Shown here piece after piece: positions 2,147 to 4,567 of a stretch of DNA of 4,567 nt. The DNA is from a virus (Duplodnaviria > Heunggongvirae > Uroviricota > Caudoviricetes). The stretch is taken from IMG/VR virus record IMGVR_UViG_2734482586_000007, one strand, 5' to 3'. Position 1 is the stretch's first letter, and each line of letters opens with the position of its first letter. Below the pieces are notes generated by a model, which made no database searches, had not been told where the DNA came from, and saw only the letters and a program-made list of their open reading frames with translations. A program made the position numbers and the translations under genes.

Positions 2147-2503
2147 TTATTCAGTTCTGGATTTTGTCGCCCTGCGTATCCGCGCTTTCGCGTTACGCTC
2201 AATCTGTATCAGCTTTTCTATATTTCTCCGCCTTTCCTGTTCCTCCTGGCGCAATAGCCTTACATCATCTGCCAGTCTGGTTTCTCTTTTTGCCACAGAG
2301 AGCATCCAGTCAAACGGCTCCACAACCGCACCGCAGATTTTACAGCGGACCTGACGCTCTTTTTCGTCAACCCGTACAGAGGCGTGATGGCAATATGGTC
2401 TTTCCGATGGCTCATAAAGAAAATTAACCTGATTACGAGGGTCATCCTCTTTTACCGGAAATAAAACGATATTGCTTAACTCATCTTCTGGTTTTATTTC
2501 CAT
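2147..2503 (-). CDS. hypothetical small protein with putative zinc-binding motif (C-H-H ... C-x2-C) and basic coiled-coil-like tail, 118 aa
   Basis: Minus-strand ORF. Preferred start is ATG at 2503-2501 with AAGGAGAGGAG 6 nt upstream. The ORF-track start at 2560 abuts the ren-like stop (TGAATG) but adds 19 residues rich in rare AGG/TTA codons. Motif: PYCHHASVRVDEKERQVRCKICGAVV. Stop TAA at 2149-2147. Confidence 0.6.
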   Translation of the reverse strand: MEIKPEDELSNIVLFPVKEDDPRNQVNFLYEPSERPYCHHASVRVDEKERQVRCKICGAVVEPFDWMLSVAKRETRLADDVRLLRQEEQERRRNIEKLIQIERNAKARIRRATKSRTE

Positions 2504-2997: not shown

Positions 2998-3779
2998 CTA
3001 CTTAACAACCCTCGAATGGCTAACATTCGGACGCCAGCTCTCCCAGTTAAAATTCACCCAGCGCCNNNNNNNNNNNNNNNNNNNNNNNNNNNNNNNNNNN
3101 NNNNNNNNNNNNNNNNNNNNNNNNNNNNNNNNNNNNNNNNNNNNNNNNNNNNNNNNNNNNNNNNNNNNNNNNNNNNNNNNNNNNNNNNNNNNNNNNNNNN
3201 NNNNNNNNNNNNNNNNNNNNNNNNNNNNNNNNNNNNNNNNNNNNNNNNNNNNNNNNNNNNNNNNNNNNNNNNNNNNNNNNNNNNNNNNNNNNNNNNNNNN
3301 NNNNNNNNNNNNNNNNNNNNNNNNNNNNNNNNNNNNNNNNNNNNNNNNNNNNNNNNNNNNNNNNNNNNNNNNNNNNNNNNNNNNNNNNNNNNNNNNNNNN
3401 NNNNNNNNNNNNNNNNGATAGCTGCCGCTAAGTGATTCTTCCCGGTACCAGGTTTTCCGCTGAACGCAAAATTTGTACACCCGGTCATCAGTTCATCGGC
3501 GATGGATTTCGCCTGGCTTAACGCGTATCGCTGGCCGTCGTTCTGCACCTGGTAATTCGCAAACGAGCATTTACGGTGCAACGGCTGGATGCCTGAGCGA
3601 TTCAGAATTTTTTCCACCCGCAACTGGCGATTCAGGCGGTTGATCTCCTCGCTACGTTTCTGGCCTTCAGCAAGTTGCCACTCGCGCCACTCCGCTACCG
3701 TTCTGAATGGGGCGGTTACATGTGGCGGGGTCAGTCGGCGGATGCGTTCCAGAACGCCGCCTGTCGCAATATTTTTCAT
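2998..3779 (-). CDS. DnaC-family replicative helicase loader (AAA+), interrupted by the N run; the N-terminal and C-terminal parts are in different frames as given
   Basis: N-terminal part (3779 to 3417): MKNIATGG...FANYQVQNDGQRYALSQAK...FAFSGKPGTGKNHLAAAI closely resembles E. coli DnaC through the Walker A motif. C-terminal part (3065 to 2998, another frame): RWVNFNWESWRPNVSHSRVVK resembles the DnaC tail (LWVIFNWDSYRSRV) and stops at TAG 3000-2998, just before the ren RBS. The span 3779-2998 is 782 nt, which is not a multiple of 3. Confidence 0.8.
3066..3416. other. run of 351 N (masked or gap) inside the DnaC-like gene
   Basis: Directly visible. It hides the central AAA+ region (Walker B, sensor motifs). 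ORF-track entry 3016..3435 on the plus strand is an N-translation artefact. Confidence 0.95.
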
Positions 3780-3785
3780 GGTCCG

Positions 3786-4121
3786 TTACCCCCTGAAGCC
3801 TGGCGGGATCGCACTGTCCGGCAACGAGACGGTGTTAACCTGTCGGAGCAACGTCTCAGGCCGAACACCTTTCGGCGCGAACAGGCCCTGGTATTCATTG
3901 GCGATGCTGTGTCGAATCACCTGCTCAGGTGTAAAACCCTGCTGACGGAATTTTTCCAGTTCCCGTATCGCCCCGTTAGCGCCCTGCTCCGTTCGAATCG
4001 GTTTTCGCAATGCCTGTCTGAACCGGACCCACTCATGCCAGAGTGTTTCCGGCAACCAATCGGGCAGCTCAATAGCCTCCGGCTCGAATTTTTTAGACGC
4101 TCGTTTTTGGCGAGGGGGAGA
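3786..4121 (-). pseudogene. replication initiator (replisome organizer), C-terminal DnaT-like domain segment
   Basis: Frame open from 4121 to stop TAA 3788-3786. Translation ...FEPEAIELPDWLPETLWHEW...RQVNTVSLPDSAIPPGFRG matches my recollection of the E. coli DnaT C-terminus (PDWQPD..., VNTVSEPDSQIPPGFRG). The ORF-track start at 4055 is a TTG and is not the real start. The stop is 6 nt upstream of the DnaC-like ATG. Confidence 0.7.
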
Positions 4122-4134
4122 TCAGTATTTAGAT

Positions 4135-4154
4135 CTTCCTCTTCCTCTTCCTCT
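4135..4154. repeat. hexanucleotide repeat (CTTCCT)x3; encodes EEEEEE in the minus-strand linker frame
   Basis: Directly visible: cttcctcttcctcttcctct. On the minus strand this reads GAG GAA GAG GAA GAG GAA in the frame that is open across 4255-4122. Confidence 0.85.
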
Positions 4155-4178
4155 GGTAACGCTTTTTGATCCGTTTGT

Positions 4179-4197
4179 GTAACGCTGGCAGCGTTAC
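4179..4197. repeat. perfect 19-bp palindrome GTAACGCTG-G-CAGCGTTAC; candidate initiator-binding iteron (ori-like)
   Basis: Directly visible. A further GTAACGC copy lies at 4156-4162. It sits in the linker-coding part of the initiator gene, near GATC sites at 4120-4123, 4132-4135 and 4168-4171. Confidence 0.5.
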
Positions 4198-4224
4198 CTT
4201 TTCGTTTCAGTTCGCGTATTTTTG

Positions 4225-4463
4225 TTACTCGCTCGTTTGTAACCGCCCGTTTTTTTTAGAGCTTTTTCCGTTATGACGTTCAAAGTTAGGTAGAGAAAGC
4301 CCTCCGTCATTTTCGACCAGCCATCCAACCTGAATTAACGCATCAGCAAAACCAGACATAAAAGTGATGCGATCTATTGCACTTTTTGTAACGCCGCGAG
4401 CGTTACAATCTGCATTACCGTCTATCATTTGTTGATCCGCCCATGCCCAGAAGCGAATAACCT
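4225..4463 (-). pseudogene. replication initiator, N-terminal segment; upstream boundary set by the IS end
   Basis: Frame open from the IS junction to TAA 4227-4225. The ORF-track GTG start at 4488 lies inside the putative IS terminus, so it is an artefact. The first native ATG is at 4428-4426 (MIDGNADCN...), with a weak RBS. Continuing into the linker requires a -1 shift at the A8 run (plus T8, 4250-4257). Confidence 0.5.
4386..4408. repeat. inverted repeat TTGTAACGC-cgcga-GCGTTACAA (9-bp arms) with the same core motif as the 4179-4197 palindrome
   Basis: Directly visible. Core GTAACGC at 4388-4394 and GCGTTAC at 4400-4406. Confidence 0.5.
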
Positions 4464-4567
4464 GAGGTAGCCTGAGTTTAACGGACACTCCTTCCTGAAA
4501 TAGAATGGCATCAGAAGGAGCTAATAATGAGCAGAAAAACCCAACGTTACTCTAAAGAGTTCAAAGC
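4464..4567 (+). mobile_element. left end of an IS3-family insertion sequence (IS600-like by recollection), truncated by the window edge
   Basis: A plus-strand ORF starts at ATG 4527 with AAGGAG 6 nt upstream and reads MSRKTQRYSKEFK..., which I recognise as the N-terminus of an IS3-family OrfA. A candidate terminal inverted repeat begins TGAGGTAGCC at about 4464, about 63 bp before the ATG. The exact boundary is uncertain by about 10 bp. Confidence 0.6.
4527..4567 (+). CDS. IS3-family transposase OrfA, N-terminal 13 codons only (partial)
   Basis: ATG at 4527 with AAGGAG at 4515-4520; translation MSRKTQRYSKEFK runs off the window end. Confidence 0.6.
   Translation, partial: MSRKTQRYSKEFK

Follow-up and report, generated by a model that had tools for sequence, protein, structure and literature searches.

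The stretch of viral DNA analysed here, IMG/VR record IMGVR_UViG_2734482586_000007 (4,567 nucleotides, hereafter called the window), carries as its genes of interest the early-right region of a Rac-like lambdoid prophage, located on the minus strand. Positions 3786 to ~4463 hold the remnant of a ydaU-like replication initiator gene, a pseudogene recognized from its reading frames, from alignment and from its match to PHROG 2509. Directly downstream (3054-3779, minus strand) lies a ydaV-like gene for a DnaC-type helicase loader, assigned from the open reading frame (ORF) list and homologue profiles and partly masked with Ns. A first-pass annotation, made from the letters of the window, had noticed a cluster of short repeats inside the initiator gene and had proposed that they represent the replication origin and the initiator-binding sites of the prophage. 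We have examined these repeats in the window, in intact relatives, and in more distant phages whose initiators belong to the same family.

The repeat unit, GTAACGC or its complement, occurs six times in the window, where 0.39 copies are expected, and none of 200 shuffles reached this number. Five of the copies fall between 4156 and 4406 exactly as annotated, at 4156-4162 (+), 4179-4185 (+), 4191-4197 (-), 4388-4394 (+) and 4400-4406 (-). The single additional copy that had been mentioned does exist, although it is found at 2190-2196 (-) and not at 2200-2206. Within the gene, two palindromes of the form GTAACGC-N5-GCGTTAC (4179-4197 and 4388-4406) are separated by 209 bp, and both are read in the same frame as the peptide xNAxxVT. 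The two larger structures described for these copies, a perfect 19-bp palindrome and an inverted repeat with 9-nt arms, could both be confirmed. The first of them in gene orientation, which we call cluster A, is the palindrome TTGTAACGC-CGCGA-GCGTTACAA (4386-4408; 9-nt arms), corresponding to ~+160 nt into an intact gene and encoding CNARGVT in a loop of the N-terminal domain. A degenerate third half-site, GCATTAC (4412-4418, one mismatch), lies 12 nt from this palindrome, and its counterpart is a perfect GCGTTAC in phage Rac MN652886 and in vB_EcoS-666R9. Cluster B is the perfect 19-bp palindrome GTAACGCTGGCAGCGTTAC (4179-4197; 9-nt arms and a 1-nt centre), which is located in the interdomain linker, ~+367 nt into an intact gene. 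A lone half-site (4156-4162) is present 23 nt past cluster B in gene orientation. This copy is translated in a different frame (K-A-L-P) and is part of a block, CAAAAAGCGTTACCAGAGGAAGAGGAAGAGGAAGA, that is kept across loci from Escherichia, Klebsiella, Enterobacter, Erwinia, Yersinia, Serratia and Pantoea. Directly after this last half-site comes a polypurine tract (4134-4154), which is (GAGGAA)3 on the coding (minus) strand, encodes EEEEEE, and is the same feature as the (CTTCCT)3 tract that had been noted beside several GATC sites.

In place of a block of four tandem 19-bp iterons, the sites form two or three clusters that lie apart from one another, each made of 7-bp half-sites spaced at 12 nt. 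Moreover, the proposal that the array occupies the interdomain linker, as in phage lambda, holds for only one part of it. The 4156-4197 cluster corresponds to residues ~122-137 of the intact protein, within a predicted disordered linker (residues 96-159), but the 4386-4408 palindrome lies inside the N-terminal domain, where it coincides with a low-confidence loop of the predicted structure. The three GATC sites that had been included in the element are indeed present at 4120, 4132 and 4168 (4120-4171), but they are not a conserved part of it. The window shows no excess of GATC, with 13 copies where 15.7 would be expected; of the three, two are missing from vB_EcoS-666R9, many other relatives lack GATC at these positions, and no conserved cluster of the Dam/SeqA type emerged. 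A GATC element acting through Dam and SeqA was ruled out on these grounds.

Over 3780-4465, identity reaches 98% with DNA of E. coli FDAARGOS_944 and 93% with both 'Escherichia phage Rac' MN652886 and vB_EcoS-666R9, and related DNA is present in 1421 of 5426 complete E. coli genomes, or about a quarter. In those three records the intact initiator is an ORF of 789 nt (262 amino acids), annotated as ydaU or as 'DNA replication protein O'. A three-frame translation reveals that the corresponding reading frame in the window is broken across three frames. Alignment with intact genes identifies a 10-bp deletion at 4107-4118, where one copy of the direct repeat AGGGGGATTT has been lost and the frame shifts, and alignment together with the reading frames places a second frameshift at 4250-4257, where a run of eight T residues replaces the six of intact relatives. 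These two changes may be real mutations or homopolymer sequencing errors, and we cannot tell which. Homology to intact genes ends at 4463, and the remaining 4464-4567 (plus strand) is the left end of IS600, an insertion sequence of the IS3 family. In E. coli genomes the corresponding DNA carries the annotation 'IS3-like element IS600 family transposase', and orfA of IS600 begins at 4518 (MSRKTQRYSKEFK...). IS600 takes the place of the first ~100 nt of the initiator gene and of the upstream region that bears a third palindrome in relatives. With the 10-bp deletion, the two extra T residues and the 5′ end replaced by IS600, the initiator gene of the window is, judged by its sequence, a pseudogene. 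Truncated homologues have also been annotated from Shigella flexneri and, taken with the presence of IS600, they suggest that the DNA comes from Shigella or a closely related E. coli.

Whether homologous genes carry the repeats at the same positions had been named by the first-pass annotation as a way to challenge its reading, as had a count of the 7-mer over a whole genome. Both comparisons came out in favor of the sites. The relatives compared came from Shigella, Mixta, Erwinia, Yersinia, Serratia, Winslowiella, Rouxiella, Samsonia, Rahnella, Pantoea and Pectobacterium, and loci of Klebsiella phage ST11-OXA245phi3.2, Enterobacter phage BUCT554 and E. coli phage ZX5 were included as well. In a scan of 26 loci, GTAACGC half-sites are located at ~+148 to +172 nt (+148/+160/+172 from the ATG) in 24 and also at ~+334 to +426 in 22, and about half of the loci carry a further palindrome at -20 to -56. 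The remaining ~6 kb of each locus contains zero to three copies. In intact close relatives the third palindrome, TGTAACGCTCGCAGCGTTACA, is non-coding and is positioned 13-33 nt upstream of the ATG, beside the Shine-Dalgarno sequence. The genome-wide count was made on the intact relative vB_EcoS-666R9 (complete, 38.7 kb), in which eight of the 12 copies of GTAACGC are found in a 441-bp stretch at the initiator gene. The other four are scattered singles, to be compared with 3.5 copies expected genome-wide.

The architecture of the clusters is flexible in some respects and fixed in others. The arms of the palindromes are fixed across loci and the central 5 nt are variable. Each cluster contains two to five half-sites in variable orientation at 12-nt spacing, with a constant lone half-site 23 nt further, and some relatives carry direct copies where others have inverted copies that could form a hairpin. 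Among relatives, the loops or linkers of the protein lengthen in step with the number of half-sites. Codon usage is also distinctive at the sites. Asparagine is encoded by AAC in 62 of 71 xNA motifs, compared with 138 of 265 asparagine codons elsewhere, and valine is encoded by GTT in 52 of 61 xVT motifs, compared with 87 of 271 elsewhere; the counts are drawn from related sequences, and hence their significance is overstated, but the effect is large. Codon choice is thus bent to preserve the DNA motif, which indicates selection at the DNA level. Homologues with GTAACGC sites were also encountered on contigs labelled Novipirellula and in an Ignavibacteriae metagenome-assembled genome, and homologues with few or no such sites were found on contigs labelled Akkermansia and Phycisphaerae. 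These occurrences may reflect either binning contamination or a much wider host range.

The intact initiator matches PHROG 2509, 'replication initiation protein', over residues 1-262 (E 1e-89). Its C-terminal ~90 residues, including the terminal PDxxIPPGFRG, align with the DnaT structures 6aep, 2ru8 and 9zbt (E 1e-6 to 1e-5). The DnaT match is limited to this one domain, and the NCBIfam DnaT model yields 16 bits against a cut-off of 201. Directly downstream, the intact ydaV homologue matches IstB_IS21 and Bac_DnaA in Pfam and PHROG 50, 'DnaC-like helicase loader'. The full-length profile match, the DnaT-like C-terminal domain and the DnaC-like loader together identify the protein, at the level of profile comparison, as a YdaU-like phage initiator with a DnaT-type C-terminal domain. 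A relationship to lambda O was not recovered: no Pfam family matches the initiator at E ≤ 1, the lambda O N-terminal family included, and PHROG 678 'O-like' matches only residues 77-236, which correspond to the linker and C-terminal domain. The intact architecture consists of a predicted N-terminal DNA-binding domain, a disordered linker and the DnaT-like C-terminal domain. AlphaFold models the N-terminal domain with helices at residues 16-25, 29-48, 61-68 and 73-80 and a beta-hairpin at 84-91. The mean predicted local distance difference test score (pLDDT) of the model is 66, and the N-terminal domain scores ~63-87 outside of a single low-confidence loop (residues 52-58, pLDDT <50). Both in-gene clusters encode low-confidence segments, which are this loop and the linker at 96-159. 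The N-terminal domain and linker form a unit that is joined to different C-termini, namely the DnaT-like domain, others in BUCT554 and ZX5, and that of a 376-amino-acid variant. In variants of 376-380 amino acids, which include many E. coli and Salmonella homologues, an insertion of ~114 amino acids (…GRIDIVVTD…IELD…) is found right after the acidic stretch encoded by the polypurine tract. It looks like a separate inserted domain or a mobile element at the origin.

More distant relatives, found by tblastn, keep the layout of the sites with the same or with other half-sites. GTAACGC is used in Xanthomonas CP2, Pseudomonas VW-6S and PAN70, and Ralstonia QkW1. Salmonella epsilon15, Cobetia Carin1, Ralstonia RPZH3 and Pseudomonas phiPSA1 carry GTCCGCA/TGCGGAC at the equivalent places, Ralstonia Raharianne carries GTAGACG, a Vibrio phage carries TGTCACA, and GTCACGC, GTAACGT and GTGACGT occur in viral contigs. 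We assigned 58 viral contigs to six motif classes; the 5′ portion of their initiator genes contains 11-20 sites per kb, compared with 0.08-0.46 per kb over the remainder of the loci. N-terminal domains in this set share a mean identity of 0.66 when they belong to the same motif class and of 0.36 when they do not, such that at least six half-site classes follow the similarity of the N-terminal domain. The neighboring genes are wholly different, for example a methylase and RuvC in epsilon15, Roi, DnaC and DnaB in PAN70, and DnaB in Raharianne. The initiator's own N-terminal domain is therefore the only constant partner of the sites. Binding of the half-sites by this domain is a prediction that is well supported by such co-variation.

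The Rac prophage of E. coli K-12 provides a closely related example of this pattern. It has the same gene order (a cII-like ydaT, the initiator and a DnaC-like ydaV), and the C-terminal half of the initiator gene is 93-96% identical in DNA. K-12 ydaU, however, encodes a different N-terminal domain (DUF1376/YdaU family) and has no GTAACGC. It carries instead its own TGTTTGAACA/TGTTCAAACA repeats at the same linker position, at 2907, 2930 and 2963 in K-12 locus numbering, together with weaker copies. These repeats are followed by an A-rich tract and by a shared GGGGGGATTTAGGGGGGGATC island, and they are candidate iterons of oriJ, the origin ascribed to Rac.

The polypurine tract is the second constant component of the arrangement. 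In every family member the last half-site is directly followed by such a tract on the coding strand, which is CCAGAGGAAGAGGAAGAGGAAGA in the Rac-like group and a near-invariant CC(A/T)AGAGAAGAGAAGAGAAGAGAAGA, i.e. (GAGAA)4, elsewhere. In 18 loci the tract is the 30-nt segment with the highest AT content (0.62-0.67) and the highest purine content (0.75-0.79) within ~400 nt on either side; the AT content of (GAGGAA)3 in the window is ~0.52. Arginine codons inside the tract are AGA in 23 of 23 cases, compared with 11 of 151 outside of it, even in phages with a GC content of 58-65%. Because AGA is the only arginine codon used even in these high-GC phages, the tract is constrained as DNA and not only as peptide (EEEEEE or REEKRREE). 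At least 120 viral contigs contain the exact 24-mer CAGAGAAGAGAAGAGAAGAGAAGA, with few exceptions inside a gene of this initiator family. Of 80 such contigs inspected, ~70 have it at a distance of 330-620 nt into an ORF whose product starts with MAGDWIK..., as is characteristic of the family. A conservative reading of these data is that the tract is a candidate unwinding or strand-loading element.

Our preferred interpretation, which we consider probable, is that the half-sites are recognition sites for the N-terminal domain of the initiator itself, and that with the polypurine tract they form a Rac-like prophage origin inside the initiator gene. The core of the original proposal is in this respect strongly backed by the positional conservation of the sites, by their variable number and orientation, by codon bias and by the co-variation with the N-terminal domain. 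Origin activity, unwinding and helicase loading are proposed by analogy to known systems. Initiator dimers would bind the GTAACGC-N5-GCGTTAC palindromes and the flanking half-sites spaced at 12 nt, occupying the linker cluster, the N-terminal-domain cluster ~209 bp upstream and, in intact phages, the third palindrome before the start codon. The resulting nucleoprotein complex would then destabilize the adjoining polypurine and relatively AT-rich tract, and the DnaT-like C-terminal domain together with the DnaC-like YdaV loader would bring in the host DnaB helicase. Occupancy of the upstream palindrome, beside the ribosome-binding site, would probably also provide autoregulation.

Several observations weigh against an origin at this place. 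Most immediately, in the window itself the initiator gene has been inactivated and one cluster of sites has been lost. Function in this DNA is therefore unlikely, and the candidate origin that had been proposed for this prophage is probably a dead relic whose remaining sites could act only with an initiator supplied in trans. In addition, the clusters are ~200 bp apart and do not make up a compact iteron block. The tract is only 52-67% AT and so does not qualify as a classical unwinding element, nor does the AT/GC profile of the gene contain one. A Foldseek search of the N-terminal domain model against the PDB returned no significant match (E >1); its top matches are loosely winged-helix proteins, and since the fold search is not significant a winged-helix fold is only a suggestion. 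Literature searches found no published account of these sites, nor binding or replication data for the family, and the heavily annotated epsilon15 record contains no origin feature. Finally, the published 'oriJ' primers map to ydaV of K-12 Rac and not to ydaU, although they served only to mark this part of the prophage.

The last of these points is also an argument for the main rival explanation, in which the palindromes serve purely as autoregulatory operators or roadblocks, bound by the initiator or by another regulator, that limit transcription or translation of their own gene, and the true origin is located elsewhere, for example in ydaV, where the K-12 'oriJ' primers fall, or beyond. A palindrome directly upstream of the ribosome-binding site or ATG, as seen in about half of the relatives, is well placed for such a role, and inverted repeats are typical of binding by dimeric repressor-type proteins. 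However, an operator needs neither direct-repeat half-sites at a 12-nt period nor a polypurine tract constrained as DNA, and the layout mirrors that of lambda, where the same sites serve as the origin. No sigma-70-like promoter was detected near the sites; a promoter at the upstream palindrome was considered separately and was dropped when the scan revealed no sigma-70-like site there. The upstream palindrome is optional, but the in-gene arrays and the polypurine tract are near-universal, which weakens this explanation to the point that we regard it as unlikely.

A less probable alternative, to which we give little weight, is that the repeats have some other role at the DNA level, either as sites for a different phage or host protein or, with the polypurine tract and a C-run block, as recombination joints for the exchange of N-terminal and C-terminal modules. 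In favor of such joints, the unit of N-terminal domain and linker is found with different C-terminal parts, and K-12 ydaU shares only the C-terminal part and a short G-run/GATC island at the junction. Nevertheless, a recombination joint would leave unexplained the specific half-site clusters at two or three places, and recognition by a different protein is difficult to reconcile with a half-site that follows the N-terminal domain across phages with completely different neighboring genes.

It is very improbable that the repeats are a by-product of a peptide motif (xNAxSVT), the result of chance, or, at 4179-4197, a hairpin that intrinsically terminates antisense transcripts. Although xNAxxVT is encoded in one and the same frame by the two in-gene palindromes, codon bias runs toward the DNA motif, one palindrome is non-coding, one half-site is read in another frame, the peptide falls in predicted disordered loops, and the motif changes with the N-terminal domain; chance is rejected by the shuffles of the window and by the count in vB_EcoS-666R9; and the terminator-like score that our scan assigned on the plus strand to the palindrome and the CTTTTCGTTT that follows it is not a conserved property, because direct copies replace the inverted ones in relatives.

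If the sites and tract do form an origin bound by the initiator, the tract might play a more active part in it. One tentative possibility, rather doubtful at present, is that it is a dedicated initiation element that the site-bound initiator uses for DnaB loading, and not a passive AT-rich region. The tract is always on the mRNA-sense strand and retains the rare codon AGA even in GC-rich phages. When the initiator gene is transcribed, a stable purine-rich RNA:DNA hybrid (R-loop) would be left behind, or else the tract itself would take on an unusual structure, and the DnaT-like C-terminal domain would load DnaB there. This would amount to a restart-primosome mechanism tethered to a specific site. 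If such a scheme were true, the origin would fire in a manner unlike the lambda O-some and its AT-rich melting, and this manner of firing would be common to many proteobacterial phages, which make up a large family whose site specificity is easily re-programmed.

An origin within the initiator gene is itself a known arrangement; it is the polypurine tract that stands out as a feature constrained at the DNA level. In lambda and the Shiga toxin (Stx) phages, iterons and an AT-rich tract make up an origin midway along gene O, where additional iterons lengthen the O protein (PMC7466680). The elements described here similarly place repeats inside the initiator's own ORF, at the junction between a predicted DNA-binding N-terminal part and a C-terminal part that would recruit the helicase-loading machinery. 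As in those phages, variation in repeat number adds or removes residues of the linker; the repeats are followed by a strand-asymmetric tract that is AT-richer than the DNA around it. They differ from lambda in that the ydaU-like initiator has no Pfam match and has a DnaT-like C-terminal domain, in that 7-bp half-sites spaced at 12 nt make up two or three clusters with ~200 bp between them, where the lambda type has 19-bp iterons in a tandem array of four to six, and in that the adjacent tract is a polypurine (GAGGAA)3 or (GAGAA)4 with 52-67% AT. With E. coli DnaT (primosomal protein I) the initiator shares an alignable C-terminal region of ~90 residues. DnaT, however, has no N-terminal domain for binding at specific sites, and its role lies in PriA-dependent restart rather than at any defined origin.

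Other initiators also bind repeats within or near their own genes. In Bacillus phage SPP1, oriL is inside gene 38, whose product binds repeats in its own gene. Iteron plasmids divide the two functions, such that initiator dimers bind an inverted repeat at the promoter for autoregulation and the repeats of the origin drive initiation. The proteins of these systems are not known to be related to the initiator discussed here. An oriJ plasmid was reportedly the subject of a paper by Potrykus et al. in 2000 (Plasmid 44:111). Rac has been described as having an active origin, oriJ (PMC3945230), but no sequence-level definition of oriJ was found in the literature. For the 'oriJ' PCR (polymerase chain reaction) primers given by De Paepe et al. 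2014 (PMC3945230, supplementary file 4), the 155-bp product lies inside K-12 ydaV (2089-2243, K-12 locus numbering) and not ydaU, and for this reason the literature position of oriJ appears to be only approximate.

If our interpretation is correct, it would define, at the level of sequence, where the origin of the Rac-like replication module of DnaT type lies; diverged forms of this module also occur in phages that infect Salmonella (epsilon15), Pseudomonas, Xanthomonas, Ralstonia and Vibrio. Across at least six specificities, the family would then provide initiators that are naturally paired with their half-sites, and these pairs would make initiator-origin recognition, incompatibility of co-resident prophages and module exchange directly testable. 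For the window itself the message is more modest: it probably holds the decayed origin of a prophage, within an initiator gene that IS600 and two frameshifts have inactivated.

The rest of the window encodes further prophage genes on the minus strand. These are a DUF977 protein (2561-2983), a zinc-ribbon ORF (2147-2560), QueH (1313-1999; Pfam PF02677, E 2e-65), an ORF of 95 amino acids (418-705) and the start only of a DUF1367 protein (26-421). QueH is a homologue of epoxyqueuosine reductase, so that a gene for a tRNA-modification enzyme resides in the nin-like region of this prophage. Two stretches of the window are masked with Ns. One, 3066-3416, falls within the DnaC-like ydaV gene, and the other, 968-1231, corresponds by synteny with E. 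coli FDAARGOS_944 to the position of the hokD toxin locus, between QueH and the 95-amino-acid ORF. No Rfam family was matched in the window, and a scan of it for DnaA boxes (TTWTNCACA) gave no match, and hence no sign of a DnaA-dependent origin. The single extra GCGTTAC at 2190-2196 is inside the zinc-ribbon ORF, and the same isolated copy is present in E. coli FDAARGOS_944. Given the background of zero to three copies per 6 kb in relatives, its occurrence is compatible with chance.

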